From IMG/VR virus record IMGVR_UViG_2579778660_000001: a stretch of DNA of 64,000 bases. One strand, 5' to 3'. The stretch comes from a virus (taxonomy: Duplodnaviria > Heunggongvirae > Uroviricota > Caudoviricetes). Below are positions 1 through 21,775 of the stretch, piece after piece. A model generated the notes under the pieces. It did no database searches and was not told the DNA's origin. It saw nothing but the letters and a program-made list of their open reading frames with translations. Numbering within the stretch: position 1 is the first letter of the stretch; each line of letters opens with the position of its first letter. The translations under genes were made by a program, and so were the position numbers.

Positions 1-1
1 C

Positions 2-2509
2 GATGGTAGTGCCAATATCGACCTGCCGGGCGTGAATAAAGCAGGTAATCAGAGCACTACCGGTAATGCTGCAACCGCTACAAAACTGCAAACAGCCCGC
101 ACAATCAACGGTGTTAAGTTTGATGGTTCTGCGAACATTTCGATACCAACAATCACGTCCAGAGGGCGTGTTACTGCGCTCACCGATACAACACAAGGTG
201 CTGCTACTGGATTGCAGATGTATGAGGCGTACAACAATAGCTACCCGACCGCGTATGGCAACGTATTGCACATGAAAGGTGCGAGTGCTGCTGGTGAGGG
301 CGAGTTGCTTATTGGCTGGAGTGGTACGAGCGGTGCACATGCGCCGGTTTTCATTCGCTCCCGAAGAGATTACGCTGATGCGGCATGGTCAGCGTGGGCG
401 CAGGTATATACATCAAGGGACTCCATTCCTGGTGTGAATGCCACTGGCAATCAGAATACAACTGGCAATGCAGCAACTGCTACAAAACTACAGACGGCAA
501 GAACTATCGGCGGAGTTAGCTTTGATGGTACTGCGAATATTAATTTACCTGGTGTTAACGTTGCGGGTAATCAGAATACATCCGGTAACGCGGCTACAGC
601 GACCAAGTTACAAACCGCGAGAACTATAAATGGGGTGTCGTTTGACGGTTCTAAAAACATTGAGCTAACTCCAAGGTCTATAGGCACGATCAACTCAACA
701 ACAATGTCTTTTAGTGGTGGTGCTGGATGGTTCAAGCTGGCAACTGTAACCATGCCACAGGCCAGTTCTATGGTTTACATAAGCCTGATTGGTGGTGCTG
801 GATATAATGTTAACTCCCCTATGCAGGCTGGTATATCTGAACTTGTTCTTCGTGCGGGAAATGGGAATCCAAAAGGTCTTACCGGTGCGTTATGGCGACG
901 GACATCGGTTGGATTTACTAATTTTGCATGGGTGAATACATCCGGTGATACCTATGATGTTTATGTTGAAATAGGTAATTACGCCACGGGTGTAAATATC
1001 CAGTGGGATTATACCAGGAACGCCAGCGTAACGATTCATACATCACCATCTTATACAGCGGATAAACCAACAGGCCTGACAGATGGAACTGTATATGTCA
1101 TTTACAGTTCGCACATTAAACCGACCGCCACGGATGTCGGCGCATTCCCAATAACCGGAGGAAATCTCAAAGGCGGTTTAACGGCTACTGGTGAGATCAT
1201 TTCAAAATCGGCGAATGGTCAGCGCATTGCCTACGGAAACTACGGATTCTTTATCCGAAACGATGGTTCACACACATTTTTCATGTTGACCGATTCGGGT
1301 AACAGCCTGGGAACCTATAATAATTTAAGGCCGCTTATTATTAACAACGCCAATGGTACTGTTACGATCGGTAATGGACTCAATGTTACTGGCGGCATCA
1401 ATGGTAGTTTGAACGGTAATGCTGCAACTGCAACAAAACTGCAAACAGCACGCACAATCGGCGGAGTGTCATTCGATGGTAGTGCCAATATCGACCTGCC
1501 GGGCGTGAATAAAGCAGGTAATCAGAGCACTACCGGTAATGCCGCAACCGCAACGAAACTACAGACTGCACGCACAATCGGCGGCGTGTCGTTCGATGGT
1601 AGTGCCAATATCGACCTGCCGGGCGTGAATAAAGCAGGTAATCAGAGCACTACCGGCAATGCTGCAACTGCAACAAAACTGCAAACAGCACGCACAATAG
1701 GCGGAGTGTCATTCGATGGTAGTGCCAATATCGACCTGCCGGGCGTGAATAAAGCAGGTAATCAGAGCACTACCGGTAATGCCGCAACCGCAACGAAACT
1801 ACAGACTGCACGCACTATCAACGGTGTTAAGTTTGATGGTTCTGCAAATATTACTTTAACTGCTGCTAACCTTGGCCTGAGCGATTCAAGCGGATATGTT
1901 GGGCGTTTGGTGAATACCCAGGTTTTCACTTCATCAGGTACGTATACCCCAACCCCAGGAACAAAACGGATCAGGGTCACAATAACGGGCGGCGGTGGCG
2001 GAGGGGGCGGCTGCAAGGCATACTCGAACAGCGAGACGTTTTTCGGTGCTGGCGGTGGGGCCGGTGGGACAATAATTTCAATAATGACCCCGACACAGAA
2101 TAGTTATCCAGTCACTATCGGCGCAGGTGGGGCCGGTGGTGTTAGTGCGACGAACGGCACCAGTGGCGGGAAAAGCGTATTCGCATCGTTAATTGCTCCT
2201 GGTGGCTCAGGCGGCGGAAAGTCAGGAGTCACAAACACAAACGGTGGTAACGGAGGTGTGCCGAGTACTGGCGATATCCGCATCACTGGTGGATATGGAG
2301 GCGACGGTCAGTCCGGAAATATCGGCGTCAGCGGTGAAGGCGGAACATCGTACTGGGGCGGCGGTGGACGTGCAGGCGCTGGCGGTGGTGTTATCGGTAA
2401 AGCATATGGTTCAGGCGGAGGTGGCGCATACGATGCCGGTTATAGCGGAACCAGTATGACGGGCGGGAAAGGCGCTTCAGGGATTTGTATTATCGAGGAG
2501 TTTGCATAA
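2..2509 (+). CDS. tail fibre protein, 5' partial (reading frame is open from the first bases of the window)
   Basis: Reiterated 40-aa motif GNAATATKLQTARTI(G/N)GV(S/K)FDGSANI typical of enterobacterial phage tail fibres; Gly-rich C-terminus; followed by an overlapping assembly-chaperone gene. The track start at 32 is GTG but the frame continues upstream. Confidence 0.85.
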   Translation, partial: DGSANIDLPGVNKAGNQSTTGNAATATKLQTARTINGVKFDGSANISIPTITSRGRVTALTDTTQGAATGLQMYEAYNNSYPTAYGNVLHMKGASAAGEGELLIGWSGTSGAHAPVFIRSRRDYADAAWSAWAQVYTSRDSIPGVNATGNQNTTGNAATATKLQTARTIGGVSFDGTANINLPGVNVAGNQNTSGNAATATKLQTARTINGVSFDGSKNIELTPRSIGTINSTTMSFSGGAGWFKLATVTMPQASSMVYISLIGGAGYNVNSPMQAGISELVLRAGNGNPKGLTGALWRRTSVGFTNFAWVNTSGDTYDVYVEIGNYATGVNIQWDYTRNASVTIHTSPSYTADKPTGLTDGTVYVIYSSHIKPTATDVGAFPITGGNLKGGLTATGEIISKSANGQRIAYGNYGFFIRNDGSHTFFMLTDSGNSLGTYNNLRPLIINNANGTVTIGNGLNVTGGINGSLNGNAATATKLQTARTIGGVSFDGSANIDLPGVNKAGNQSTTGNAATATKLQTARTIGGVSFDGSANIDLPGVNKAGNQSTTGNAATATKLQTARTIGGVSFDGSANIDLPGVNKAGNQSTTGNAATATKLQTARTINGVKFDGSANITLTAANLGLSDSSGYVGRLVNTQVFTSSGTYTPTPGTKRIRVTITGGGGGGGGCKAYSNSETFFGAGGGAGGTIISIMTPTQNSYPVTIGAGGAGGVSATNGTSGGKSVFASLIAPGGSGGGKSGVTNTNGGNGGVPSTGDIRITGGYGGDGQSGNIGVSGEGGTSYWGGGGRAGAGGGVIGKAYGSGGGGAYDAGYSGTSMTGGKGASGICIIEEFA
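1410..1850 (+). repeat. tandem 120-bp in-frame repeats (about 3.7 copies, near-identical) inside the tail fibre gene
   Basis: Direct reading: the unit aacggtaatgctgcaactgcaacaaaactgcaaacagcacgcacaatcggcgg...ccggt recurs at 120-bp period; degenerate copies at 1-120 and 430-660. Confidence 0.85.
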
Positions 2510-2919
2510 TGAATACGTCATATGCAGTTATTGAAAATGGGATGGTTGTGAATGTCATTGTCTGGGATGGCGAGGCTGAATTCACAGTGCCGGATAATCA
2601 GCAGCTCATTAATATTTCTGATATCAGTGAGCAGCCCGGAATCGGCTGGGTGTATTCAGACGGGGGATTTACTGCGCCACCCACTCCGGAACGTTCTCAT
2701 GATGAACTGGTAGCTGACGCTGAACAGAAAAAACAGTCGCTGATTGATACCGCAATGGCTTCCATTAGTCTTATTCAACTGAAATTACAGGCCGGACGGA
2801 ATCTTACGCATGCTGAAACCACCCGTCTTAACGCTGTGTTGGATTATATCGATGCGGTGACCGCAACGGATACCAGCACTGCACCAGATGTCAATTGGCC
2901 AGCGTTCCCGGAGGCGTAG
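2509..2919 (+). CDS. tail fibre assembly / chaperone protein (U-like)
   Basis: ATG overlaps the tail-fibre stop (TAATG) with GGAG 12 nt upstream; C-terminus ...DTSTAPDVNWPAFPEA resembles Tfa-family chaperones; position immediately 3' of the fibre gene. Confidence 0.6.
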   Translation: MNTSYAVIENGMVVNVIVWDGEAEFTVPDNQQLINISDISEQPGIGWVYSDGGFTAPPTPERSHDELVADAEQKKQSLIDTAMASISLIQLKLQAGRNLTHAETTRLNAVLDYIDAVTATDTSTAPDVNWPAFPEA

Positions 2920-3314
2920 TCCATTTAATGAAATATCTGGATCGCTGGAAGCATCGACTGGTTCCAGTGCATCCAGATAAGATGATTACTGTTCATGCTT
3001 CAAGAGCGAGCGCATACTGCATCCAGGCCAATCTAACTTTCATTCGACCAGAGTGTCACCTCTCAAAAGCATTTTTTGACTCTGGTCGTTCAGCCTTTTT
3101 GCCGCTCGCCTTATCCTCAAAAATTAGCTCACATCCTGCGCTTTCAAGGGCATTTCGTTGCAAAGCGGTGTTTTGGTCATTTGTTGATATGCGAATGTAT
3201 CCAATAAGCATATGTCTCCCTTGTATGCTAAGGATACGATTCTAGAAGATGTCCTGTAAGGAAATAACAAACTGACTAAGTTAGTGGCGCATTAGATGTT
3301 ATTTCTGGAGGGGT

Positions 3315-3641
3315 ATGTTTGCAGATTATGAAAATCTGGCTGTAGTAGTCATAACATCCCTACTAAGTGGAACCGGCGTATTCCTTCTCGGAGTCAGAGA
3401 CGGGCGCATTTCTGCGTCCCTGCTCAATCTTGCGAGTGAATTGTTTACTGCGGTAACAGCCGGGCTTGCGGGGTATGGGGTGGCGGTTAGCCAAGAATGG
3501 CCTGAAGGTATCATTTTCTGCGTTGTTCTGATTGCCAGTAACAACGGAAGAGAAATTTTACAGGGCTTGAAGTCCAGAGCTAGTAACGTCTTGAATCTCT
3601 TAAGCGTAATAGCGAATGGGGGAAAAGGTGGAGAGAAATAA
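3315..3641 (+). CDS. putative holin (LydA-like), 108 aa, predicted membrane helices
   Basis: GGAGGGG RBS; hydrophobic segments; size and position match the first gene of the P1 darA/lyd operon (recalled gene order, not searched). Confidence 0.45.
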   Translation: MFADYENLAVVVITSLLSGTGVFLLGVRDGRISASLLNLASELFTAVTAGLAGYGVAVSQEWPEGIIFCVVLIASNNGREILQGLKSRASNVLNLLSVIANGGKGGEK

Positions 3642-4087
3642 TGGGTAACTTTGGGAATTATTTCATTTTTATCATGGCATTTGTTGCCATCATTGACCGT
3701 TTCATTTTTCGTCGCAAGAGTGTTGAGATTTTGAGTATTGGTGACGCTGTAGTGAAAGAATCCGCTATAGCATTTCCTGTTTCGCTACGTGTTAAGCGAA
3801 GCTGGGTCAGCAATGCTCAAATCGAATATTGGTTGCAAGACCTGAAAAATCCATCTGTGGTTATTTCAGGGAAAACGCGACCAGTTGACGCCTCAAAACG
3901 CGGTGAGAGAGAAGAGTATTTGCTCATCGATACGAAATATCTTGAGCCAACGAAGTGGGATCTGAAAGTCACATTGACTAACGGTAACTGCCGACTGAAT
4001 CCGCTTTATCGCATTTTCCCTATCAATGACTGCATAGAGCGCCAGTTTACGATCGAAAAGCGTGAAGGAGACTGGGATGTCAAATAA
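3641..4087 (+). CDS. putative antiholin / lysis-associated protein (LydB-like), 148 aa
   Basis: TAATG overlap with the upstream gene; N-terminal transmembrane helix; size consistent with LydB. Confidence 0.35.
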   Translation: MGNFGNYFIFIMAFVAIIDRFIFRRKSVEILSIGDAVVKESAIAFPVSLRVKRSWVSNAQIEYWLQDLKNPSVVISGKTRPVDASKRGEREEYLLIDTKYLEPTKWDLKVTLTNGNCRLNPLYRIFPINDCIERQFTIEKREGDWDVK

Positions 4088-4697
4088 GAATAATTATGTT
4101 CTTCTTAATTATGATGAGTTAAACGAAAAGGGGCTGGCAAAACTCGTCAAAGAAATCAGCAAAGGTGGTTACAAGATAGCGAGGGTGATCCCTGCAAGTA
4201 ATGGCAGGAAGAAAGATGGGATCATGACGCGCACGTTTACCCTTATTGGTCTTGATGAACAGACAATGGAAGTTCAGGTTAACGATACCGGTGATATATC
4301 TGGGATCAAACTGAATGGTAAAACAGTACCGTTCAAGCCAGTAAAAACAATGTCGGCTTTGGGGCAATCTCTTGCGGCTTTATTTAATCGCGGAGCAACT
4401 TCTTTCCAGAAGTCATTAGCTCGAAAACTTGCTCGTGCAGCAAAAAATATTGATGACGAAAATAAGAAGCGGCAGGGAGTTAAATCCAACGCTCAGAAAT
4501 TAGCTGAAGCGAAAGAATCACGTGATGCACTCCGTGAAGATATCGCTAATGCTAACGACAAACTGTCTAAACTCCAGAGCAAGTCAGACAAAGTAATGCA
4601 AGATACGGGTAACGTTAAAGCTGCCTTGTCTCAGGAAGTAGCTAAGACACGTGCTCTTAAAGAAGAAATCGCGCGCCTGGAGGATGAGCATGATTAA
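4077..4697 (+). CDS. Hdf-like coiled-coil virion protein
   Basis: AAGGAG RBS 6 nt before ATG at 4077 (track start 4062 is less likely); Lys/Glu-rich coiled-coil C-terminus; sits immediately 5' of the DarA-like gene. Confidence 0.35.
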   Translation: MSNKNNYVLLNYDELNEKGLAKLVKEISKGGYKIARVIPASNGRKKDGIMTRTFTLIGLDEQTMEVQVNDTGDISGIKLNGKTVPFKPVKTMSALGQSLAALFNRGATSFQKSLARKLARAAKNIDDENKKRQGVKSNAQKLAEAKESRDALREDIANANDKLSKLQSKSDKVMQDTGNVKAALSQEVAKTRALKEEIARLEDEHD

Positions 4698-6615
4698 CAA
4701 TCCTTTACGAATTAATATTCAGTCTACTTTTGCTGATACGATCCCCGGCTATATGCCAGGTCGCTGGTCTTCAGAAGAATTAAGCGAAGATGACCTGATT
4801 TTTGAGGCGGCGACCTTAGAAGATATTGAGCTTGCCTATATGGGCAATGAAATTCTGGTTGTGTCTGACGAAGCTATGTTTGAGTCCATAACTACAACCA
4901 GAATTCGGTTAGCTCAAACAATGCGAGCTTTCGTCCGTGCGCTGAATCGTGGCCTGAATGGTACGAATATTATGGCAGGGACTGATGAAGCCGGGACCGA
5001 TGAAAATGGACGTAATTGTATTGGTGGTGCGATTATCGGTCGTGTACGTCGGGTAGCTAATATCCCTGTTTTGACCGCGCAGATACCGCTTACTGACGGG
5101 CAGAGTACAAGCATAATTTTCCACTCTCCAACAGCTGACGGGGCAAAAATAAAGAGTAACGACGAGCTTGTTGCATTTCAGTTTTTACTTAATAAGCGTA
5201 ACGTAACTCACGTTGTCGCCCCGATTGGCGGGAGAGATGTTTCTTTAAGCCAGGTATGCCAGGCGCTATCTAATTTGATTGAGCGTAACAGCGAAAAATT
5301 TAAGAAAGCAAAAGAGCGCCAGGACAAAATGAAGGCAGATATTGAGAGTTATCTCAATGAAGCAGATAAACTGGCAGAAGAACGGTCAATAACAATTGAT
5401 CAGGTGGACGTTGCGCAACGTGGGCTGACTGAAAAGCGTGCTGCTCTTACGGAGATGCAAAAAAAACTTGATGCCCAGAAAGCCATCAACGAGGAATTAC
5501 AAGAAAAACGCGATAAATTGTTGTCTGCTAAAGGTGAAAAAACGAAGGAGCGAGCGTTTAGTGACCAGCTGCGACATGTAAAACATAATCTTGCCATTGA
5601 CGGAAAAACAGTGCTGGATAATGGCGCTGAAGTTAATTATGTCACGTCCGGCAGTGACAATTTCGTTACGATAGTAGCACCTGAAGGTAAATTCAGTATT
5701 GATGCCAGTGCTGTCAAAGGAGGCAGTTTGGCAGATGCTGCAACCAAATTACTTAAAGCCTACCGAGAGCATAACGCAGATAAATATAAAGTTGATGTGT
5801 TACCAGGCCAGCAGGAAGACTCCGAACCACCACAGACAGCCCCCGAGACGAACCCAGTATCACAACCAGAGAGCCAAGATGTAGGTAAATACCACTATGC
5901 ACTTCAATCTCGCCCGGCTGGTGTTGGTGCTGTGCCGGATGGGAATAAAGCCGTGCTTGATCGTCCTGACCAGGCTGATCAGTATTACGGATATGCTCGT
6001 CACGGTATCATTACGTATGACCGTAAACTGACAGATGAAGAAGTCAGCCAGTACGAGTTGCTCTATCTTCCTGATGAAGATGAGCTGAAAGATTTTGCAG
6101 GCCAATTGGTTGTGTCCAGCATGTCTAAACATATTGATGGCTATGTGGACCTGTTTGGCAGTGACCTGAAAACATTCAAGGCGCAAGTGAAAATTCTTTT
6201 CCGCAAAGCGTTTCCAAACGTGGCGTATCCACTTGGTGATGGGGAGAACCTTTTCATTATGGACGTGTATAACGCCCTTCAAAATTATTCAAGCGAAGTA
6301 AAAACAGAGCATGTGGTTGAGCCAGAATCACAACCACAACCAGCACCAGAACAGGAGCCGGAGCCAGAAGAAGCGGGTGAATCAGCAAGTGAAGCTGATC
6401 AGGAGGCAGATAAAGCGCTGGAGTACCTGAAATCCGTGCCGGAGCAGTTTACATCCCGCGATCTGACGGTCATCAGTACTGAACTTGATCATGTACAGGA
6501 AGCAGCAAATGCTCTAATCAGTGCAGGTCGATACGACGAGAACGAAGCCACTGTGGGTGCAGCAGTTGACTACCTGATCAACATTCTGGCTGAAATTCAG
6601 CAGGGAGGTGCTTAA
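4690..6615 (+). CDS. DarA-like internal head protein (defence against restriction), 641 aa
   Basis: GGAGGA RBS with ATG at 4690 overlapping the upstream stop; size close to P1 DarA; coiled-coil and Pro/Glu-rich acidic linker; operon context with a DarB-like gene elsewhere in the window. Confidence 0.45.
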   Translation: MINNPLRINIQSTFADTIPGYMPGRWSSEELSEDDLIFEAATLEDIELAYMGNEILVVSDEAMFESITTTRIRLAQTMRAFVRALNRGLNGTNIMAGTDEAGTDENGRNCIGGAIIGRVRRVANIPVLTAQIPLTDGQSTSIIFHSPTADGAKIKSNDELVAFQFLLNKRNVTHVVAPIGGRDVSLSQVCQALSNLIERNSEKFKKAKERQDKMKADIESYLNEADKLAEERSITIDQVDVAQRGLTEKRAALTEMQKKLDAQKAINEELQEKRDKLLSAKGEKTKERAFSDQLRHVKHNLAIDGKTVLDNGAEVNYVTSGSDNFVTIVAPEGKFSIDASAVKGGSLADAATKLLKAYREHNADKYKVDVLPGQQEDSEPPQTAPETNPVSQPESQDVGKYHYALQSRPAGVGAVPDGNKAVLDRPDQADQYYGYARHGIITYDRKLTDEEVSQYELLYLPDEDELKDFAGQLVVSSMSKHIDGYVDLFGSDLKTFKAQVKILFRKAFPNVAYPLGDGENLFIMDVYNALQNYSSEVKTEHVVEPESQPQPAPEQEPEPEEAGESASEADQEADKALEYLKSVPEQFTSRDLTVISTELDHVQEAANALISAGRYDENEATVGAAVDYLINILAEIQQGGA

Positions 6616-6983
6616 TGACCATCTCTGTTTTAGACCGCCTGAAATTAGGTAAAGAGCTATCAGATCTAATGCAGGCGCAGAAAACTGCGCCAGTATTGCA
6701 ACGCGTCACCATTGGTAAGCAGATTGTTGATGTGATGCTGAAATTGGGCCTGGGGACTGCCGCGCAACCGGCAGCGGAACCGCAACAACAGACTGATCCT
6801 GTTGTAGATGAAGTCCCTAAGATAGTGACTGACTTCCTGGGCGGTGTGTTCACAAAGTCCACACAAATGGAATTTATTGATGCGCTGCGTGGGATCTCAA
6901 ACTATGTTGGCGAGTTCCTTACGTTGGAGCAGGCTAAAGTACAGACCATAAGCTGGGTGAAAGCCAACGGTTATGCCGGGTAA
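6615..6983 (+). CDS. DdrA-like small protein, 122 aa
   Basis: TAATG overlap with the DarA-like gene; size matches the P1 ddrA position; followed by a terminator. Confidence 0.35.
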   Translation: MTISVLDRLKLGKELSDLMQAQKTAPVLQRVTIGKQIVDVMLKLGLGTAAQPAAEPQQQTDPVVDEVPKIVTDFLGGVFTKSTQMEFIDALRGISNYVGEFLTLEQAKVQTISWVKANGYAG

Positions 6984-6986
6984 TCA

Positions 6987-7012
6987 AAAGGGGGTGAAAT
7001 CCCCCTTTCACT
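6987..7012 (+). terminator. intrinsic terminator-like hairpin (aaaggggg-tgaaat-ccccctttc)
   Basis: GC stem followed by a T-rich stretch directly after the stop at 6983. Confidence 0.5.
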
Positions 7013-7065
7013 TCTCTGTTCTCACATAAATCACACTCTTTTTACACTCACAGCTTTCTCTATAG

Positions 7066-8463
7066 TTGGAGTGTATTTTGAACAAATCAGTTACTTCTGC
7101 GCTTTCCGAGGCCGCAGATATTAACAGCGTCATTGCTCTGGTTTCTTCATTAGAGAGGAAAGAAACACGCATGGGGCGAAGTAGCTACGTAGTCACCAGC
7201 AAAGGCGCAGAGGTAAAGACGGCTTTTAAGGTCGTTGATGCCAGCAGTCTAATCATTTCGAACAACCTTGACGGTACGATTAACCCGGCCTTCCCGGAAG
7301 AACTCCAACCACGAGATCGTACCCGGCTATCCAGCAAACTCCAGGTTAACCGTATTGCCTCCGATTTACGCCCGGCACAATTAACGGATTCCGGTATGAG
7401 CAGCCACGGAGCGCCGATAGTTGGTGCGGACAACGTTGTTGAATCCGGCAACGGAAGGAGTATGGGTATCTGGCGTGCCTATGAGCAAGGACAGGCGGAT
7501 GAGTATCGCCAGTACCTGATCGACCATGCGAAAGAGTTTGGTCTGAATCCTGACGAAATTTCGCAAATGTCTATGCCCGTACTGGTGCGAGAAAGACTCA
7601 CAGATGTAGACCGCGCTCAATTTGCCCGCGATTCAAACATTAGCGATCTGCAAGAGATGGCAGCAAGTGAAAAAGCGTATGCGGATGCGCAATTTCTCAC
7701 TGAGAGCGTCATGGCGCTATTTAATCCTTCAGATGATGGAAATCTGCTGGCGCGGTCCAATGATGCGTTTATTCGTGCGTTTTTGCGCGAAATTGGCGAT
7801 ACAGCGACGGCAGGCTTGCTTACTGCCGATGGGCGTCCCACGAAACAGCTTATCGATCGCATCCAGAATGCAATTTTTGCCAAAGCGTACAAGGATGAAA
7901 GGCTTGTTCGGCTGGTGTCGGAAGAGCCAGATCCGGAAATGCGTAATATCCTGACCGCATTAAATACGGCAGCCAGCGATTTTGCGCAAATGCAGTCGCT
8001 GTCTGGCGACGCTCACCATGACGCAGTAACAGGCTTAGTGGACGGTATAGAGCAGGTTAATGGCCTGGATACACAGGCGATAGCAGCACTCCAGGAAGCA
8101 ATCAATCTTGTACGTGAAGCCAAAGACAACGGTCAGGCCGTTGAAGAAGTGATCGCCCAAAGGGGGTTATTCGGTGACAGTACACCGGAAGCTGAGGCAT
8201 TGGCGCTATTCATCGTAGCAAATAATCGCAGTGCGAAGCGTATGGGGGCAGCATTCAAAAAAATGGCGCAAAAAATCAACGACGAGCTGACTCATAAACA
8301 ACAGGCATTGGGCGATATGTTCGGCGGTGGCGATGTTGATCTGCGTCGTATTTTGTCTGCTGTATCTGATGAAATTGAGGGTGAATTTGGCGAAGGGAAA
8401 GGTCTGAACTTTGCTATGTTTGAAAATTCTACAGTTCTAAATAATTGCCGTATGGGAAACTAA
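7066..8463 (+). CDS. hypothetical virion/morphogenesis-associated protein, 465 aa
   Basis: Long ORF with TTG start (uncertain) and no recognisable motif; lies between the Dar-like operon and the portal-like gene. Confidence 0.45.
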   Translation: MECILNKSVTSALSEAADINSVIALVSSLERKETRMGRSSYVVTSKGAEVKTAFKVVDASSLIISNNLDGTINPAFPEELQPRDRTRLSSKLQVNRIASDLRPAQLTDSGMSSHGAPIVGADNVVESGNGRSMGIWRAYEQGQADEYRQYLIDHAKEFGLNPDEISQMSMPVLVRERLTDVDRAQFARDSNISDLQEMAASEKAYADAQFLTESVMALFNPSDDGNLLARSNDAFIRAFLREIGDTATAGLLTADGRPTKQLIDRIQNAIFAKAYKDERLVRLVSEEPDPEMRNILTALNTAASDFAQMQSLSGDAHHDAVTGLVDGIEQVNGLDTQAIAALQEAINLVREAKDNGQAVEEVIAQRGLFGDSTPEAEALALFIVANNRSAKRMGAAFKKMAQKINDELTHKQQALGDMFGGGDVDLRRILSAVSDEIEGEFGEGKGLNFAMFENSTVLNNCRMGN

Positions 8464-8527
8464 ACCAACCGCTGAAATCACATACTGATTATGCTGCCGC
8501 AAAACTGGAAACAATTTGCGGTGATTC

Positions 8528-10210
8528 ATGGCAACGAAAGACAAAAATAAAGGCTTTCTGTCAGCATTGAAGAAAGCCTTCAACGGTGGTGATGTTACGC
8601 CCGCCGATCCGGTCGTTTTTACGAGCGGACATAGTGTCGTTGCTCGTTCCGGCCTGTCTGCTTTACGTCCAGGCATCCTGGGGAGCAATAGCGATGGCAT
8701 GACGAGTGAGGCAGATTCAATTTCTTTATCCGCTGAACTGCCCGGCGAGCGCCTGCAAAAGTACAACATCCTGGAAACGATGGCTAAAAGCCCGACTATC
8801 TCGACGGCTTTAAACATTCACATTGCACATGCGCTTGCGCCTTCAAAAAAAACCGGACAGGCATTCATCCTTTCGCCAAAGGATGGTTCCGATGCCGAGG
8901 CAGTAAGTAGATGTGAAGAGTTAACCGCTGATTTGGGGGCGATGATTAATGACGGACTTCCTTCATGGGCCATGATCATGGCGATCTTTGGGGTGTCTTA
9001 TGTCCGACCTTATGCTGAACAGGGCAGGGGGATAACAGGCATTGAGTCCAGTTATTACACTCTGCCACATTTCGTCCAGGAATTTTATCGCGGTAGCCAG
9101 CTGGTTGGATTCAGTGGTGATTACATCCTGGATACGCATAGTTTGCGCAGAGTAATAACCGAACCGTGGAATCTGGTTTCCATGAAAAATCCCTATTGGA
9201 CGCCACAGCATAAAGTTATTCCGGTTAGCTACGGCACAAAAGGGTACTCACTGTTAAGTGATCAGGCTGATAAGCCGTTAATGGAGACGCAGAATTACGG
9301 AACTTCATTCCTGGAATACAGCTATGAACCTTACCTTAATTTATGTGCTTCGCTCGCCGCGCTGAAATCAACGCGAAATAATGCAGCCAAAATTGACCGC
9401 CTGATTGCTCTTACGACGAACACACTGGACCCGGTTAATGCGGCGAACTATACGCGTGGCGTCAGCCAGGCATTGAAGCGTCATAGTGACCTGGTGGCGC
9501 AAAGGTCGATTAATGCTAACGCTATTCCGACTGTGCTTAACCATCTGATACCTGTTATGGGGGACGGGAAGAACGGCATCACCATTGATACGCAATCTAT
9601 ACCCGCAGATATCAGTGGTATCGAAGACGTTATGTTTCACCTCCGGCAGCTTGCTGCAAGCCTCGGCATTGACGCAACAATGCTTGGCTGGGCGGATCAG
9701 ATGAGCGGAGGGCTTGGAGAAGGCGGCTGGCAGCAAACTGCTATCCAGGCTGCATTGCGTGCGAACTGGATCAGACAGGCCGCCCAGCGAACTATTTATC
9801 GGCTTCTGGACATTCACCTCGCTTATAAATACGGCAAGGTTTACACCGAAACAAACCGCCCTTATGACGTGCAATTCAACTCAATGAACACTGCTATTCA
9901 GGAAGAGGAAAACCGGGAACTGGATGCACGCGCTAACTTTGTTGCTGTCATCTCGCAAATAATGGACCAGATCCAGAACAACCCGAAACTGGCTGGTAGT
10001 GACGCGTTTATGCGTTATCTGTTCACCGAGCAGTTGCACATCGACGATGACACTCTCAACACCATGATCAAAGAGTTTAAGGCGAATGAATCAGAGCAAA
10101 ACAACGAGCATGGTATGTACGAATCCGCGCCGTTGTCGTCCGGTGACGATCCGGAAAACTGGACGCCAGAACAGTTAATAAACTTTGCAAAATTTGTGAT
10201 GAGCAATTAA
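8528..10210 (+). CDS. portal (head-tail connector) protein, 560 aa
   Basis: Central segment NYGTSFLEYSYEPYLNLCASL resembles the YGRSYIEEYLGDLRSLENL region of T7-type portals (recalled); followed by a scaffold/protease-like gene. Confidence 0.5.
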   Translation: MATKDKNKGFLSALKKAFNGGDVTPADPVVFTSGHSVVARSGLSALRPGILGSNSDGMTSEADSISLSAELPGERLQKYNILETMAKSPTISTALNIHIAHALAPSKKTGQAFILSPKDGSDAEAVSRCEELTADLGAMINDGLPSWAMIMAIFGVSYVRPYAEQGRGITGIESSYYTLPHFVQEFYRGSQLVGFSGDYILDTHSLRRVITEPWNLVSMKNPYWTPQHKVIPVSYGTKGYSLLSDQADKPLMETQNYGTSFLEYSYEPYLNLCASLAALKSTRNNAAKIDRLIALTTNTLDPVNAANYTRGVSQALKRHSDLVAQRSINANAIPTVLNHLIPVMGDGKNGITIDTQSIPADISGIEDVMFHLRQLAASLGIDATMLGWADQMSGGLGEGGWQQTAIQAALRANWIRQAAQRTIYRLLDIHLAYKYGKVYTETNRPYDVQFNSMNTAIQEEENRELDARANFVAVISQIMDQIQNNPKLAGSDAFMRYLFTEQLHIDDDTLNTMIKEFKANESEQNNEHGMYESAPLSSGDDPENWTPEQLINFAKFVMSN

Positions 10211-10223
10211 CCGGAGGGAAATA

Positions 10224-11222
10224 ATGCAATCACTGAATACTGTTACGGATCGCTTCTCCCTGGTAGAGAAAATCCGCAAACACACACCGCAGAACAACCG
10301 AAATTACGTCATTCAGTCGGTACGAGACACATTCAACTCGCCAGAAACAAAAGAGCGTATCGCGCTGGGTGAGATGTATGGTTATTACGGTCATGGTCGC
10401 CGGGCGATGCACTATAACAAAACGAAAAGCCTGAACTTGCCGGAAGTCTCTGTTGTGATGGTAGATGGGAAGGCTGTTGTATTGGAGAACGTGCCGTCAA
10501 ACAGGACTATCGACATTTCGATTGACGACAACGGCATTGTTACTCATACGCAGGAAATACTGGATACAGACACCGGGCGTATTGTTCAGGGCATGATTAA
10601 TTCTGGTGCTGGTGGTTGGTCGTGGGCTACATCTGGTCCAGATTCATCGGTATCCCTGGTAAAGTCTTTCCACGGCTTTGATTACGTAACTGTGCCTAAC
10701 TATATCAGCCTCGACAAGAAAAGCCTGATGCTTGAAGCAGCAGAAGAGCGCGATGCGGCTATTCATGCAGCACTTATCGAACAAGGTTTTACCGATAACG
10801 CTGCTACGGATCTGGTTCACCACTTTTCAGCAATGAAAAACCAGCAAGCCATGCTCGAATCTGCACATCGTGAAGCCCTGGAATCAGAATTGATGCTCCT
10901 TGAAGTGGAAAACATACAGCTTCGAGATAAGCTGCGCGCTCAAACAGCGATGATGGAAAGCCAGGGGGAAAATGCAAAGCAATGCCGCCGGATTTTGCGT
11001 GACGCTATCCAGGAAATGCCTGTTTTTATCAGCGCAGAACAGCGCCGGGCGCTCTGCCGTATGCAGTCTGAAGATGATGCCCGCATAGTGGCTGCGATGC
11101 TTGAATCTCTTGGGGCAAATGCTACTTATGGCTTACCGGTATCAGGCAAGAAAGAACCAGAGTTATCACCGAAGGAGAACAAAAACACCACCCCGTTACT
11201 CTTCGTTTCGCGACGGGCATAA
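10224..11222 (+). CDS. head scaffolding / prohead protease-like protein, 332 aa
   Basis: GGAGGG RBS; coiled-coil C-terminal half; position immediately after the portal gene. Confidence 0.4.
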   Translation: MQSLNTVTDRFSLVEKIRKHTPQNNRNYVIQSVRDTFNSPETKERIALGEMYGYYGHGRRAMHYNKTKSLNLPEVSVVMVDGKAVVLENVPSNRTIDISIDDNGIVTHTQEILDTDTGRIVQGMINSGAGGWSWATSGPDSSVSLVKSFHGFDYVTVPNYISLDKKSLMLEAAEERDAAIHAALIEQGFTDNAATDLVHHFSAMKNQQAMLESAHREALESELMLLEVENIQLRDKLRAQTAMMESQGENAKQCRRILRDAIQEMPVFISAEQRRALCRMQSEDDARIVAAMLESLGANATYGLPVSGKKEPELSPKENKNTTPLLFVSRRA

Positions 11223-11233
11223 CCGTCGAATGA

Positions 11234-11250
11234 AATCAAATTTCTAACAT
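11234..11250 (-). promoter_or_regulatory. operator-like site (ATGTTAGAAATTTG on the minus strand)
   Basis: One of about 12 copies of the ATGTTAGAAAACTAATT-type motif; adjacent 18-bp palindrome AGTGTATTTATATACACT. Confidence 0.5.
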
Positions 11251-11337
11251 AGTGTATTTATATACACTGTTGATTCTGTCCGATGTGATCGAGTAGGATC
11301 GCGGTCACTGCTCCGGTAGCGACTGCCAAAAAAAGCA

Positions 11338-11362
11338 AAAGCCGCTGAGAAGCGGCTTTTTG
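11338..11362 (+). terminator. intrinsic terminator (agccgctgagaagcggct + T run)
   Basis: Perfect GC hairpin followed by TTTTT. Confidence 0.75.
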
Positions 11363-11422
11363 GTGTATAAATCCACTGGCATAGATTTATACGGTAGATA
11401 GATTTTTTCACGGAACTATCTG

Positions 11423-12385
11423 GTGAATATTTTAAATTCAGTTTCAGTAACTTTCAACACTTCTGAGTATAAAAACAACACTGAATACCACAAAAAAATC
11501 AAAGGTCATCAGTTGAGTTTTTTTGCTCGTCATATCGGTCTTCTTTCCCCTTCACATAGCGCCATTATTGCCGAGTTCGCCAACCTGGCAGGGGCTACCG
11601 ATGAATACATGATCCGTCGCTCATATGCTGATATGTCCGAGATTACAGGACGCAGTATTTCTACTGTACGCCGGGCATTTGCTGAAGCGACGAAGTGCGG
11701 AATGCTTGTTAGGCAACATCAGGTAGCGAATAACAATGCCCAGGTGTGTAACGTATATCGGTTTACGACACAATTTCTCCACTTCATTCATGTAGCAATG
11801 GAGATAGGGGGTAAGCAGGGCATCAAATTTGCCAACGCCACAAAACTGGTTAAGCAGTTGATTTCAAAGGTTCGTTATTTTTTTGAAACTGGGAACCCCC
11901 TGTTCAAATTGAACAAGTCCCCCCATGTTCAAAATGAACAGCCAATAGAAAATAAGAGTCACTCTATAGCAAAAAGAAGAGAAAGATCATGCGCGGTTCA
12001 GCCAAAGGCTTCACCAGCAGATAGTTCTCAAGCGGATAATGGGGTGCTGGATAAAAAACCAGTGATCAGGGAAGAACATACCAACCGCTGCCTGGCGGCG
12101 GCAAAAGCGAGAGCTGCAAAGCGTCGTTCAGACGAGGGGCACGCAAAACGGCAGGCTCTGTATCGTACCGCTGAAAAGTTGGCAAAAAAATTTGCATGGA
12201 TACGTAGTGCCGCTACCGCAGTGAATAAGCCTAAACAATCCAGCGCCCTGGATTTCTCAATGGATTATTCTGGCTCCCAGGGGTGTGCAACCATTGGTGA
12301 AGCCTTTGACCTGATGAAACAGCGTGGCTATCGGTCTGAATTTGACCGGGAGGATTGGTCAATCCCTGCGGGATTCAGGGGATGA
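11423..12385 (+). CDS. helix-turn-helix DNA-binding protein (possible replication or immunity regulator), 320 aa
   Basis: Winged-helix-like segment ITGRSISTVRRAFAEATKCGML; basic C-terminal half; GTG start without a clear RBS, so the true start may be internal. Confidence 0.45.
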   Translation: MNILNSVSVTFNTSEYKNNTEYHKKIKGHQLSFFARHIGLLSPSHSAIIAEFANLAGATDEYMIRRSYADMSEITGRSISTVRRAFAEATKCGMLVRQHQVANNNAQVCNVYRFTTQFLHFIHVAMEIGGKQGIKFANATKLVKQLISKVRYFFETGNPLFKLNKSPHVQNEQPIENKSHSIAKRRERSCAVQPKASPADSSQADNGVLDKKPVIREEHTNRCLAAAKARAAKRRSDEGHAKRQALYRTAEKLAKKFAWIRSAATAVNKPKQSSALDFSMDYSGSQGCATIGEAFDLMKQRGYRSEFDREDWSIPAGFRG

Positions 12386-12524
12386 CCTGTGTGCCTACAA
12401 AACATCCCAATGATCGGCAAATGCTCGCTCGATGATTTGTATTAGAAAATTAATTTGCTGTTTCTAAATCGGAATGTATGATCTGCATCATCGACTGAAG
12501 TCATCCATTGCTGAAATTTTTAGT

Positions 12525-12553
12525 TGATCTTCCATGTTTTCAGGCTTATATTC
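12525..12553 (+). promoter_or_regulatory. candidate sigma70 promoter (TTGATC - 17 bp - TATATT) driving the c4/icd-like region
   Basis: Good -35/-10 hexamers with 17-bp spacing upstream of a 240-bp non-coding structured segment. Confidence 0.4.
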
Positions 12554-12559
12554 ATGCCG

Positions 12560-12790
12560 TCGTAGCAAATTCTGCGACCAGGTTTGACAGCCTGAATGTT
12601 AGTGCGGACAACCGCAGATTTCCGATATTGCGGTATTTTTGTGTCCGTAAACCGCGTTACGCCCGAATTATGGTGGGGCGTGATGGGGAGGCTTCGGCCT
12701 GCTGGTTTCACTAACGCCAGTCTGTCAACCCTGTCACGTCCTGCCACCTGTTTGACAGCGGGTAGCAGGTTGTTAAACCTGTTAGTGAGG
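12560..12790 (+). ncRNA. candidate c4-like antisense regulatory RNA region
   Basis: No credible ORF; direct repeats gtttgacagc at 12572 and 12751 with complementary ctgtcaac at 12721; a UUCG tetraloop hairpin (aggcttcggcct); immediately 5' of an Icd-like ORF, as in the P1 immI arrangement. Confidence 0.35.
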
Positions 12791-12798
12791 CCGTAACT

Positions 12799-13023
12799 AT
12801 GGTTAATGCCAATCCTTGCTCACGTCCAGAATTCATCTGGCGTTTCCACTCCCTGCAAAAACACTGCGATCACTTCGCAATTGCCGCAACCGAAAAAGAA
12901 GCCCGTTCTCTGATCCCTGATCAGCATGGTGTTCTTACTGGTCGTTTCTCTACTTCCCCACAACCAAACACTAATCCCTGGTATCGCAATATTACCAATC
13001 CCAGCATTGCGGAGGCACACTGA
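12799..13023 (+). CDS. Icd-like small protein (cell-division-inhibitor family), 74 aa
   Basis: Motif PEFIWRFHSLQKH...AATEKEARS; a diverged paralogue at 51993-52190; translationally chained (TGATG) to downstream small ORFs. Confidence 0.4.
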   Translation: MVNANPCSRPEFIWRFHSLQKHCDHFAIAATEKEARSLIPDQHGVLTGRFSTSPQPNTNPWYRNITNPSIAEAH

Positions 13024-13142
13024 TGGATATCTGCCTTCATGAATGCTTTTAACCGGATGATGTCGGAGGCTGAGCACCGAGGAAAACGCTGGTATCACCC
13101 CAAAATGGGGCAATTCCAGGTGATCGGTTGGGGAGGTGAGTG

Positions 13143-13340
13143 ATGGACATCATGCAGGCGGTAAAAAAAATCAGGGAAGAACAGGCTGAAGTGTGCCGCC
13201 GTAAAGCATGGAGTGTTGGTGTATGGGCCTGGCCTGATAATTACTCTACTACCGGATGGTTTTGTATTAATGGACTCCAGATCCGGGAAGTTGATTTATC
13301 GACGGCTGATATAGTCGGTAATGATTGGTTCGTGACTTGA
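13143..13340 (+). CDS. DUF2829-like small protein, 65 aa
   Basis: GGAGGTGAG RBS with ATG at 13143; motifs A.VCRRKAW and C-terminal GNDWFV; occupies the slot where an antirepressor would be expected. Confidence 0.4.
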   Translation: MDIMQAVKKIREEQAEVCRRKAWSVGVWAWPDNYSTTGWFCINGLQIREVDLSTADIVGNDWFVT

Positions 13341-13348
13341 AGCGTGAT

Positions 13349-13373
13349 GCCCCGGCCTGGTCGGGGCTTTTTT
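13349..13373 (+). terminator. intrinsic terminator (gccccg-gcctggt-cggggc + TTTTTT)
   Basis: Strong GC hairpin and T run between convergent genes. Confidence 0.75.
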
Positions 13374-13858
13374 CATGCCTCATTAGTTGAGGTTGCTGCG
13401 TCTCCGACTGGTAACAGAGCGGTATTGCGTGGTTCGCCAGCAGGCCAGCGATAGCCAGACACTCTTGATGTTGGGAATGCGCGAATATTAACCGCATCCC
13501 CCTGGTTCCCACCCAGGACAAGCAGATCGCCATTGGCGCGGCGTCCGACAACGAAGCCTACGTGCCCACCGCCTACGCGGGTAAATACAACGATACATCC
13601 GTATGCCGGTGTATCTAATTTCTCGCCCCAATCCAGATAGGATTTTGCCGACTCAAATCTTGTTGAGCGGATGCCTACACGTTCCAGCATTGCACCGACA
13701 AATGCTGCGCACCACGGCGTTTCATCGTCTTTAATTCCGCCGCGCTTGATGTCGCGCCAAAACTGAACGATTTCAGGGTTGTGTTTAGCGCCTTTTATTT
13801 CAGTCAGGCCAATGTGCTTACGTGCTTCAATTAGCCAGCGAGGTTCAATGTTTGCCAT
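13373..13858 (-). CDS. CHAP-domain peptidoglycan hydrolase (Cys/His peptidase), 161 aa
   Basis: Catalytic-type motifs PWCAAFV (Cys) and GGHVGFVV (His); divergent from the DarB-like gene. Confidence 0.55.
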   Translation of the reverse strand: MANIEPRWLIEARKHIGLTEIKGAKHNPEIVQFWRDIKRGGIKDDETPWCAAFVGAMLERVGIRSTRFESAKSYLDWGEKLDTPAYGCIVVFTRVGGGHVGFVVGRRANGDLLVLGGNQGDAVNIRAFPTSRVSGYRWPAGEPRNTALLPVGDAATSTNEA

Positions 13859-13932
13859 ATTTTTTTCCGGTCATGGGTTAATAAGTAGGCAAACTATGGG
13901 GGGTATGTGATTTTGACGGTAGTATCGTCCCC

Positions 13933-16900
13933 GTGAAAATAACATTCTCCATACCCTCTCAACCGTACCGCATAGCGGATTTTTTACGGTTTAGAGGGGG
14001 TAATCCTTTGGATAAACTACTTCATTCAATCAGTGAAGCTTCCAGCTTAGGCGAACTGATTGAAATTGTTAGTCGGTTGCATAAATTACGTGCTGTTGCG
14101 ACCTTTGGCGTTAAGAAAGTCGATGGTGTCAGCATTCAAAAAACACGGCGGGCAGCAAACAACGCCGCAGTAGAGCTTCTTAATTCCCTTCCGCCCGGCT
14201 TCGATGGGGCGAAATTAACTGACGAACAGCGTCAGATTCTTGCCGGGTATACCGGTGAAGGCGGCCTGACAGATGGTGAGGGCAGCCAATACGAATACTA
14301 CACGCCACAGTTTATGGCTGAAGGTATATGGGATCTGTTTGCTGACTACGGTATTGATGGCGGGCACGTACTGGAACCATCAGCGGGCACAGGTATTTTC
14401 CAGGAGACAAAACGACAGGGCATGATAATGACCAGCGCCGAACTGTCTCCGATTTCCGGTCGAATAAACCAGCTTTTGCACCCGGAAGACGATGTGAATA
14501 TCGGGGCGTTTGAGGCGCTGGCGGCGAAAGACGCAATGTATGATCACGCTGTTGGTAACGTACCGTTTGGTGAAGGGCGTTCCGGTGTCGCCGGGCTTGA
14601 TCCGGCATATGCAAACGAGAAGAACGTTGGCAATTACTTTGTGCTGCGCACGATCGACAAGGTTAAGCCTGGTGGGCTTATCGTATTGGTGGTGCCGAAT
14701 GGCATGACCGATGGTACGAAATATAAAAAATTGCGCGATAAAGTCAGCCGTAAAGCGGAATTTTTGGGCGCACATCGTATGCCTTCCGGTACGTTCAGCG
14801 AATCCGGTACAGATACCGTGGTGGACGTATGGGTATTGCGTAAACACCCGGAAACCTTCCTGGAGATGATCCCCGACACGGATGATTCAACACTCAAATC
14901 GGCAAACGTCCTTTGGGATACCTTCCTCAAAGGAAAATGGTTTACAACCGAAGGGAAGCGATTTGTTTACGGCGACATGGAACGTACCAGCTTCCGCAAT
15001 ACCCTGGTGGTGAAAAAGGACGGTCGTGTATCCAATGAGTCGATGAAAACCGCGCTATCTCGTCGCTTTGATAGTCGCATCAATTGGGATTTGCTCGGCG
15101 TAACTACTCAGGCATGGCAGGGCGCGAAAGTGGGCGATAAACGCCTAGTAGGCGGCATCTGGCATGAGTTTGATGGCCTGAAATGGGTCAAGGACACGAC
15201 AACCAAATCCTCCGCGCTTGATGTAAGTCGATATGGTGTTTCGACATTCGGTGATCTGCAAACAACGTTCCAATCAACAAACGGCATTCTGGCTCTGTCA
15301 TGGGGGCAGATATCCGCGATCGCTTCCGACTATCCATCGGTTATCAGTGATGAAGTAGCGGCAATGATTCGCTTTGCTGGGAAACAACGCGAAAAAGACC
15401 GTGAGCGCATTATGCGCGGTGCGCTGATCGGGCAACTTATCAATAAAGCGCTGGATAAGCGTAACCTTGGTGAAAACGTCGATGATGAACTGGCTGATGC
15501 CGCACGTCTGACGGCTGCCGAAGTTGCTAAATATGGCCCACCACACGCCATTAAGCTAAACGACATTACCGAAGCGGGCGCGAAGAACTGGCTGACATTC
15601 ACCGGGAACGTCAATCAGGACGGTGAAGCATCCGATCTGCTGTCCGGACGGCTTGATGTTAGCAAAGGGGCTGCTGGTATTGATTTCACTCGTCCGGAAC
15701 AGGTTGTGACACACCTTTTCAGCGATGTTGCCCTTAATCCTATCAATCTTGATGACTTCCGCGAGGCGTTTAAAGGCGAACTGCCAGAAGACGACGATCA
15801 AGCACTGGAATACCTGGCGAAATTCGACGATATCGCTATTGATGGATATGGTTGCCTGCTACCGATGGGCCGTGCCACTAGCGGTGATATTAAATCAAAA
15901 GTGGCACTGCTGGTGGGCTGGCGAGACGCGTCCACAGGAGAGCGGAAGGCCAACTTTGAGCGCCAGCTTTCAAAAATCGAAGAGAAACGCACGTTTACAC
16001 CGCTGAACAAAGTCACGGTAAACCTTAACGCACGGTGGTTGGATCGCCGCCTGATAAAAGAGTTCCTGGCAGAGCAGGGCTATGACGAGTTTAAGTATAC
16101 AGAACCCGACCTTAAGGTTGAGAACGGCATTCTGGTATCCCCGGACGATTACGAAGGTAAGGACGGGGTATTTACTGGCTACCAGCTACGAACCGTAAAC
16201 GGCAAAAACGGGAACGAGTTCAAGAAAGCGAATAACAAAGATGGCTTCCTGAATCAGCTTGAGAACTACCTGAACGGTGTTAAACCGCGCGGACAGAACG
16301 CTAACGAGTACCTGGACAAAATCGCCCAGCTTGAGACGAGTTTTAACGACTGGTTAAGAACTCACCCGCAGGCAGACCAGATCGCCCGCGATTATAACGA
16401 CGCCTTTAACGGTTATATTCCATTTACCCATTCAGACGCACCCCTGGGGCTTGAAGGCATCAGCGGGAAACGTATACCGCTTTCTTACCAGAACGAAGAA
16501 GTTCGTCGTCTGTCGGAAGATGGGCGCGGGATTATGGGATTCGGAACTGGTTTGGGTAAAACGACGACCGCGCTGGCACTGGAAGCCTATAACTTTGAAA
16601 CCGGGCGAACCAAACGTACCTGTATCGTTGTTCCAAAGGCCGTATACCAGAACTGGTATCACGAGGCACAGAGCTTCTACAGTGCAGATGCCTTCGCCAA
16701 TATGATGTTTATCGGTCTGGACGAAGTGCGCGATGGTGACGGAAATATTCAGACTGCCCCAGTGCTCGACCAGGACGGCACCCCGCGACTTGATAACGAC
16801 GGCAATCCGATCACCCGTAATGTTGTTAAAGAATCCGCCAGTGCCGTTATCGCTCAACGCATGAACATGATCCCATCGTCGAACTGGCGAACGGTCATCA

Positions 16901-20850: not shown

Positions 20851-20886
20851 CAGATATGGAGCGGCCTCGAAAGAGGCCGAATTAAA

Positions 20887-21321: not shown

Positions 21322-21323
21322 CC

Positions 21324-21563
21324 ATGCGAAAGAATCGTAGGTTTACGATCGACGACTTAAAAGCGTACTCACAAGGGAAGGGATACGCCCTTGAATACCA
21401 CCGTTATAAGCGAGTATTTACCCTGCGGCATATAGAAAACCCTTCGAAATGGGGATGGATTTATTTTCCGCACACTGACGATAAGCTGGTGGGGCTTGTT
21501 GATGATTTATCCTATGAAGGATGGATGATTGCTATCGACAAGGCGGTTACGGAAATTAACTAA
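21324..21563 (+). CDS. hypothetical protein, 79 aa
   Basis: Starts 3 nt after the upstream stop; Trp/Tyr-rich. Confidence 0.4.
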   Translation: MRKNRRFTIDDLKAYSQGKGYALEYHRYKRVFTLRHIENPSKWGWIYFPHTDDKLVGLVDDLSYEGWMIAIDKAVTEIN

Positions 21564-21758: not shown

Positions 21759-21775
21759 TGTGTTAGAAAATTGAT
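21759..21775 (+). promoter_or_regulatory. operator-like site TGTGTTAGAAAATTGAT overlapping the start of the VRR-NUC gene
   Basis: Motif copy. Confidence 0.5.

Follow-up and report, generated by a model that had tools for sequence, protein, structure and literature searches.

Variable tandem repeats in the tail-fibre gene of a D6/P1-like Escherichia coli phage-plasmid and their probable role as recombination junctions

A tail-fibre gene that is partly built from almost identical tandem repeats raises the question of whether the number of its repeats is fixed and, if not, by which route units are gained and lost and what follows for the fibre. Here, this question is addressed for the IMG/VR virus record IMGVR_UViG_2579778660_000001, of which one stretch of 64,000 nucleotides (nt), hereafter the window, was analyzed. 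In the window, positions 1-2509 cover the last 835 codons of gene S, the tail-fibre gene of a D6/P1-like Escherichia coli phage-plasmid: a single open frame comes in from the window's left edge and stops at 2509, at the position that gene S occupies in P1 and D6. The complete fibre comprises approximately 1,600 amino acids (aa). For comparison, we used 13 related E. coli plasmids (L001-L013), all deposited as 'complete genome' assemblies, which together with the window provide 14 alleles. The explanation that we consider probable is that of a modular fibre in which units are gained or lost, and tips exchanged, by recombination between near-identical units.

Near-identical 120-bp units in gene S

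The fibre portion in the window is divided into the following segments, with the three repeat arrays designated A, B, and C:

1-61, plus strand: final full unit of array A, of which the window edge leaves the 3' half; this half is 100% identical to its counterparts in the full units of array C
62-181, plus strand: terminal unit of array A (GNAATATKLQTARTINGVKFDGSANISIPTITSRGRVTAL), which leads into a knob-like domain; in every relative, the 94-aa domain is likewise preceded by this terminal type
182-463, plus strand: inter-array domain of 94 aa, knob-like; length constant in all 13 relatives
464-703, plus strand: array B, a diverged full unit (464-583) followed by a terminal unit (584-703); copy number invariant in all relatives
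704-1414, plus strand: domain of 237 aa with a Gp34_trimer-type module (aa 370-447, nt 1109-1342; Pfam PF21446)
1415-1774, plus strand: array C, three full 120-bp units (starting at 1415, 1535, and 1655) with identical 40-aa peptides; the core of the finding
1775-1894, plus strand: terminal unit of array C, unit-like over the first ~45 nt, then tip-specific (…NGVKFDGSANITLTAANLGLSDSSG)
1895-2509, plus strand: glycine-rich C-terminal tip (204 aa) with the stop codon; Gly_rich_2 (PF21722) at aa 644-832

Within the first 6 kb, Tandem Repeats Finder picked out a single strong array (1414-1819, period 120, 3.4 copies, 90% matches, score 693), and a repeat-finding scan recovered the same family with further copies at 1-139 and 403-661. 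Read in frame, the units of array C start at 1415, 1535, 1655, and 1775, the span 1415-1894 holding three full units and one terminal unit. The head-to-tail 120-bp repeats that the original prediction, made from the DNA letters of the window, had described in the tail-fibre gene are borne out by this analysis: the repeat is exact at the protein level, as full units 1-3 all encode the same 40 aa (GNAATATKLQTARTIGGVSFDGSANIDLPGVNKAGNQSTT), and 92-98% identical at the DNA level (118/120 between units 1 and 3, 112/120 between units 1 and 2, and 110/120 between units 2 and 3). The fourth unit, at 1775, resembles the full ones over its first ~45 nt (27 aa) only and then continues as tip domain sequence. 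All 10 variable sites among the three full units are third-codon positions and synonymous (P ~1.5e-6 under random change, given that ~26% of random changes in the unit are synonymous), and because of this, the 40-aa peptide appears to be under strong purifying selection.

A half-unit of 61 nt is 100% identical at 1-61, 1474-1534, 1594-1654, and 1714-1774, with 0 matches in 100 shuffles. Since this half-unit is shared between the window start and array C, the left edge of the window seems to cut a second young array (array A) and not an old diverged copy. The earlier description of older diverged copies upstream therefore holds for 464-703 (64-87/120 identity), where the only truly diverged copies lie, but not for the copy at 1-61.

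The part of S upstream of the window could be read from a sibling contig, L016 (IMG/VR contig IMGVR_UViG_2579778873_000001, 73,556 bp), which is 100% identical to window positions 1-2106 and 21600-28914. It supplies, in this order, four 74-aa (222-bp) repeats, a copy of the inversion crossover site cix, a knob-like domain, and array A, made up of two full units and the terminal one; S then continues with the 94-aa domain, array B, the 237-aa Gp34_trimer domain, and array C (three full units and the terminal one). The glycine-rich tip was read from the window, as it is missing from L016 through a deletion. With the full units of array A at hand, it was found that units of arrays A and C, 1.4 kb apart, differ by 4-10 nt per 120, compared to 2-10 within array C and 9 between the two full units of array A; pairwise, all five full units of the two arrays are 2-10 nt apart. 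Because the inter-array distances are no greater than the intra-array ones, this comparison indicates concerted evolution between arrays A and C.

The number of units differs between related plasmids

All 13 relatives share the fibre architecture of the window, and the number of full units per array was found to range from 0 to 2 in array A and from 1 to 4 in array C, with array B constant. The alleles are distributed over array C as follows:

1 full unit: L004, L006, L007
2 full units: L001, L003, L005, L008, L013
3 full units: the window, L002, L009, L011, L012
4 full units: L010

The suggestion that the copy number varies is thereby directly supported, and the invariance across related genomes that had been named as the refuting outcome was not seen. 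All alleles (14/14) are in frame, and the identical glycine-rich tip is found behind 1, 2, 3, and 4 units. Furthermore, with a 901-nt probe across the array, spans in the best 60 complete E. coli records vary by multiples of 120 bp; among these records, 2 units are the mode, 3 are uncommon, and 4 are rare and the maximum.

That some of these changes are recent rests on four plasmid pairs with near-identical flanks (L001/L003, L001/L010, L002/L006, and L004/L008). L001 and L003 are 99.87% identical over 16.5 kb, and their 120-bp difference consists of one exact duplicate unit in array A. L001 and L010 differ by 240 bp between aligned flanks of 98.2-99.9% identity, and a unit found once in L001 and L003 is present in L010 as three identical copies. 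The difference amounts to 240 bp between L002/L009 and L006 and to 120 bp between L004 and L008.

Chimeric units and mosaic junctions

The units also record how arrays may have been rearranged. In L004, one unit haplotype (h17) is a chimera with the 5' end of haplotype h6 and the 3' end of haplotype h7 of the relative L008, which we read as the scar of an in-register unequal crossover. Likewise, in unit 2 of the window and in haplotype h27 of L011 and L012, the 5' 41 nt of a terminal type are fused to the 3' part of a full unit. Recombinational gain and loss, as originally proposed, is supported by such chimeric units in the relatives and in the window itself; when GTDB genomes were scanned for exact matches to the window's chimeric unit, none were found.

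Chimeric units and mosaic breakpoints were, like the repeat and its polymorphism, observed directly, and the closest relative of the window changes along the fibre. Positions 62-463 are closest to L001, L003, L011, and L012 (99.0%), which are 96.6-99.6% identical across 62-1414. From 1775 on, the closest relative is L008 (99.7% and 99.0%), and from lydA on it is D6, L007, and L012. The first unit haplotype of the window's array (h4.t4) is common to L011 only, and its last two (h6.t4 and h7.t5) are those of L001, L003, L008, and L010. In the plasmid collection, 30 of 31 partial matches stop within 1698-1852, and homology to P1, P7, and D6 stops in array B, at 541 or 648. Behind array C, the relatives carry tips of 204 aa (glycine-rich), 333/336 aa (P1-type), or 185 aa. 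The arrays are thus mosaic junctions at which the same shaft is joined to different distal tips.

On account of the alternating a-b-a-b pattern of its units together with this sharing of haplotypes, the array in the window is best read as two parental arrays joined to each other; most likely, a recombination event brought the 5' units of one parental fibre together with the last two units and the glycine-rich tip of another. The claim that near-identity implies recent expansion consequently stands in part: exact 120- and 240-bp differences on near-identical flanks speak for it among the relatives, but for the window, a junction of two parental arrays accounts for the a-b-a-b pattern no less well.

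In the mechanism that we propose, the fibre is modular, with arrays of a strongly conserved 40-aa shaft unit alternating with globular domains and each array closing with a half-conserved terminal unit specific for the next domain. The near-identical DNA of the units, both within and between arrays, would be the substrate for homologous recombination in register but out of phase, be it by unequal crossing-over, gene conversion, or template slippage. Whole 120-bp units would be gained or lost as a result, always in frame, and different distal modules would be put on the same shaft. For the window, the crossover would have fallen inside the identical half-unit, copy number being set and the tip installed in one event. 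Each unit would form one segment of a trimeric, beta-structured shaft, and we infer that copy number sets the length and reach of the fibre; by our own estimate from other trimeric beta-helix and beta-spiral fibres, one unit corresponds to ~2-4 nm.

Three other candidates for the underlying process were rejected. Chi sites as local stimulators of recombination are absent from the first 10.6 kb. Hairpin-driven slippage finds no basis in the unit, as a single one folds no better than shuffles (z -1.48). Mutagenesis of the diversity-generating retroelement type does not fit either, because the differences are all synonymous third-position changes of mixed type and not adenine-specific in the variable-repeat copy, although no reverse transcriptase search was made across the whole window.

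Assembly artefacts, stable fibre types, and the rate of change

Several points weigh against recombination between units as the source of the copy-number differences and against the effect on the fibre that we ascribe to it. In-situ duplication of 240 bp is possible as the origin of the window's array and is not separable with certainty from recombination between fibres. As there were no reads, a mistake of assembly might lie behind the copy number of the window or of any one public record. No variation in span was seen within the sets of clonal isolates (EC12/15/18, four EC21Z strains, and three Lacombe pig strains). Furthermore, the structural role of the unit is a putative one: the length change per unit and its effect on the fibre would follow from analogy with other fibres, and an AlphaFold2 single-sequence monomer model of window positions 1313-2014 was uninformative (mean predicted local distance difference test score of 42, periodic short strands only). 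Because the clonal sets share one copy number, the rate of change is low and not that of a high-frequency switch, and copy number would shift as plasmid lineages diverge and not in the course of an outbreak.

The original prediction had also warned that the repeats may collapse in short-read assemblies. Trouble with such assemblies is evident as fragmentation at the arrays, but not as collapse as such: many 'partial' E. coli fibre proteins at NCBI come from contigs of 279-845 nt that start or end inside units (for example P0109, with 70 members on a 742-nt contig, as well as P0035, P0028, P0040, and P0043). These sub-kb contigs show that short-read assemblers do fail at the arrays, and they are what lends weight to the alternative that the copy-number differences are artefacts, an array of 400 bp with a truly fixed number of units having been mis-resolved by short reads. 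We nevertheless consider this improbable, since the compared records are complete genomes, the same numbers recur in independent isolates (e.g., a 781-nt span in 17 records), every variant is in frame, and specific chimeric units and distinct synonymous haplotypes are not created by simple collapse.

According to a second alternative, the number of units is a stable structural feature of old, lineage-specific fibre types, whose near-identity is kept only by selection on the peptide. The peptide is indeed strongly selected and conserved across very distant phages, and the clonal sets are invariant. However, selection on the peptide cannot explain the 100% DNA identity of 61-nt half-units across two arrays, nor the occurrence of exact duplicates of a unit in plasmids that share 99.9% identity elsewhere, and the four near-identical pairs already suggest independent gains or losses in shallow clades. 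This alternative is therefore quite improbable, and recombination between units remains the explanation that we follow below.

Decay of the Cin inversion system

In P1 and D6, the fibre locus is invertible, with the order R, S (with cix inside), U, U', S', cix, cin (on the opposite strand), and lydA. Between U and lydA, the window holds a relic of cin only, and no S'/U' cassette:

3001-3211, minus strand: relic of the cin DNA invertase gene, truncated to codons 1-74 of 186, frameshifted and interrupted by an in-frame stop; Pfam Resolvase, E = 3.8e-11

In a tblastn comparison with D6 Cin, aa 1-49 match at 88% and, after the frameshift, aa 50-74 at 60%, including the stop; DNA homology of the relic ends at 3011. 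The same relic is present in all 13 related plasmids (13/13), where PGAP annotates it as a recombinase pseudogene. An intact serine invertase Cin of ~186 aa was not found at the P1/D6-type locus, which holds 74 damaged codons, and neither were paired inverted cix sites bracketing Sv/U and Sv'/U' cassettes. D6 and P1 have two cix sites, compared to only the one inside S in L001-L010, L013, and the sibling contig; the 64-kb window itself contains no cix-like site at up to 6 mismatches to D6 cix or up to 3 mismatches to a second site type (see below). The statement that no invertible C-segment or cin invertase follows the fibre genes is thus correct in that there is no working invertase and no S'/U' cassette, but it overlooked the truncated cin relic on the minus strand.

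In L016, the cix site inside S lies 688 nt upstream of the window start, and for this reason the entire fibre portion in the window seems to lie within the formerly invertible part. With the S'/U' cassette and the second cix site gone, the fibre is, to judge from the gene content, locked in one orientation. A cix-like palindrome at 1914-1925 (ATACCCAGGTTT) was considered as a relic crossover site and dismissed, since its translation is VNTQVF and it cannot be aligned with the relatives' YLGL-encoding sites.

The loss of the Cin/cix switch, with a cin relic and no partner cix, and the presence of up to five near-identical units together with four 74-aa repeats upstream might point to a programmed device, i.e., a contingency locus or substitute for the Cin switch that yields fibre-length variants in each burst, but this is very unlikely, given that the units are long (120 bp and not short, frame-shifting ones), that all changes are in frame without an on/off effect, that high-frequency variation is not seen among clonal isolate sets, which carry the same number, as does L016 with 100% identity through the array, and that there is no intact dedicated recombinase nearby in the window.

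In some relatives, a second type of crossover-like site (TTCTCGCATACCTTGGTTTGGGCG, encoding LLAYLGLGE) was observed ~23 codons after array C. The features concerned lie at 5272 and 7427 in L011 and at 9772 and 14316-14888 in L012; relatives with the TTCTCGCATACCTTGGTTTGGGCG-type site have extra cassettes for fibre tip and assembly proteins, with an intact recombinase of 190 aa in L012. This suggests that a separate, tip-level inversion system may be nested behind the repeat array in some relatives.

Distribution and structure of the 40-aa unit

A protein search with the array returned 1,020 proteins at E <= 1e-5, including proteins from the Tara ocean metagenome and from Aliarcobacter, and the unit has a near-invariant core, ARTIGGVSFDGSANIxLPGVNxxGNQxT(T/S). 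No relevant Pfam match was obtained for the array, even at E up to 5, and no NCBIfam match for the unit; curated coverage comes only from whole-protein tail-fibre families of PHROG. A Pfam 'phage tail fibre repeat' family expected to cover the motif was not found in the Pfam search.

The rest of the fibre is better covered. Its open reading frame (ORF) matches PHROG tail-fibre families as well as the Pfam families Gp34_trimer (PF21446; E = 1.2e-27, 97.1 bits against a gathering cut-off of 27) and Gly_rich_2 (PF21722; E = 8.5e-13, 49.3 bits against 24.3). The 94-aa inter-array domain at 182-463 has no Pfam match; homologous fragments are named 'pyocin knob domain-containing protein' in their source records. 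When the whole fibre was searched against PDB sequences, matches were confined to the Gp34_trimer-like module (Mu tail fibre S, 5yvq; T4 gp34, 4uxe), and neither sequence nor profile searches of the PDB found a solved structure holding a complete unit. A profile of the unit gave two weak partial matches, to the C-terminal spike of phage L Dec (6e3c) and to the PhiM1 tail fibre. The former spans residues 97-131 of Dec at E = 8.6e-4 and takes in ~28 of the 41 positions of the profile, with a 7-residue insertion. This Dec segment has been modelled as a narrow trimeric beta-helix on the T4 gp34 template (PMC6449081), in a model that is itself of low confidence.

A literature search for the unit motif and for copy-number variation of fibre repeats found nothing specific; papers on D6-like plasmids describe the fibre inversion region as the most divergent part and go no further (PMC6799933).

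Comparison with known systems and implications

The closest known system is the gene S locus of P1 and D6. Alike are the synteny (S, U, then cin next to lydA, lydB, and darA), the backbone, which is 95-99% identical to that of D6, the cix sequence inside S in all relatives and the sibling contig, and the 40-aa unit type, which S of P1 and D6 also carries. The window differs in having no alternative S'/U' cassette, no second cix, and a cin gene reduced to 74 damaged codons. The fibre is also much longer, with ~1,600 aa compared to 940 in D6 and 1,150 in the P1 record, owing to the addition of further array-plus-domain modules and of the glycine-rich tip.

Haggard-Ljungquist in 1992 and Sandmeier in 1994 reportedly compared the mosaic tail-fibre genes H of P2, S of Mu, S of P1, and Stf of lambda and described recombination at conserved motifs, and Tetart in 1998 is said to have described motif-mediated adhesin swapping for gp37 of T-even phages. 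As in those genes, conserved motifs flank variable receptor-binding modules here, and homology breakpoints fall in the motifs; in contrast to them, it is a complete, tandemly arrayed 40-aa unit that serves as the motif, and both the differences in unit number and the scars of unequal crossover are directly readable in close relatives. Fibres built from repeats are known from the pseudo-repeats of the adenovirus fibre shaft and the collagen-like repeats in host-specificity proteins of Streptococcus thermophilus phages. In these cases, too, related viruses differ in their number of in-frame repeats, which has been proposed to set fibre length or promote recombination, whereas the present case differs in its unrelated 40-aa repeat, in near-identical DNA within one gene, and in variation among genomes that are >99% identical. 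The phage L Dec spike and the T4 gp34 shaft are comparable through the weak match of the unit profile to Dec and through the bona fide Gp34_trimer domain in the window's fibre, with the reservation that the Dec match is partial and contains the insertion.

The locus documents, cleanly, an ordinary way for phage fibres to change length and swap tips, a known kind of phenomenon that does not overturn the current understanding of tail-fibre evolution. Its practical side is that short-read assemblies of a very common family of E. coli phage-plasmids, many of them with resistance genes, are broken or mis-sized at the arrays, and that automated annotation often calls the fibre gene partial or a pseudogene. 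Therefore, a repeat-aware check by long reads is needed before fibre type or host range is inferred. Furthermore, the alleles in which one glycine-rich tip follows 1, 2, 3, or 4 shaft units form a natural series that could be used to test fibre length against adsorption, and the readable crossover scars show how conserved shaft units would mediate tip exchange. As the unit is widespread and has neither a curated family nor a structure, a sequence model of it and a structure of its trimer would be a modest but useful gain.

A far-reaching and, in our judgement, doubtful extension would be that the unit is a near-universal tail-fibre 'adaptor', kept homogeneous so that reach can change in steps of 40 aa and foreign modules can be spliced in, that this became the main route of host-range change after the loss of Cin, and that copy number is adaptive. 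If so, copy number would be matched, e.g., to the depth of O-antigen or capsule and not be neutral, and the adaptor unit would span from enterobacterial phage-plasmids to marine phages.

Neighbouring genes and further observations

The D6-like character of the element extends beyond the fibre: its backbone is 95.4% identical to D6 over 13 kb, lydAB and darA are 98.6-99.4% identical, and the gene order in the window (S, U, cin relic, lydA, lydB, a DarA_N protein, and DarA) is the same as in the D6/P1 annotation, with R of the R-S-U order lying upstream of the window. Two further features belong to the former inversion region and its border:

2509-2919, plus strand: U-like tail-fibre assembly protein, 136 aa; Pfam Caudo_TAP, E = 7.6e-22, and PHROG tail fibre assembly families
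3315-4087, plus strand: lydA and lydB lysis genes, at the end of the former inversion region; LydB Pfam match, E = 1.1e-24

The ATG of the U-like gene overlaps the stop codon of the fibre gene (TAATG). In the relatives, PGAP annotates the U-like assembly gene as an N-terminally truncated pseudogene; given the overlapping ATG and the near-complete Caudo_TAP match, the gene in the window may be functional. LydA has a weak Pfam match to Phage_holin_3_3 (E = 0.0067, below the curated cut-off), but matches D6 at 99.4% on the DNA level. An ORF of 2,305 aa, at 13933-20850 on the plus strand, follows the darA operon; its size and position suggest a DarB-like antirestriction protein.

In the sibling contig, 19.5 kb of the window (2107-21599), comprising the fibre tip, U, lydAB, the darA operon, and the 2,305-aa ORF, are absent, with 2 nt (TA) of microhomology at the deletion junction; L016 represents the same element, either misassembled or as a defective derivative with a deletion. 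Its constant part of S contains a second tandem array (L016 10398-11116), for which Tandem Repeats Finder reported 222-bp units in 3.2 copies at 95%. The number of the corresponding 74-aa repeats differs in exact steps among D6-like relatives, being 2 in D6, 2 in L011 and L012, 3 in L007, and 4 in the element of the window.

Finally, the Chi sequence GCTGGTGG occurs 41 times within 10608-59747 of the window, compared to 1.5 occurrences expected from shuffles; P1 is unusually Chi-rich.

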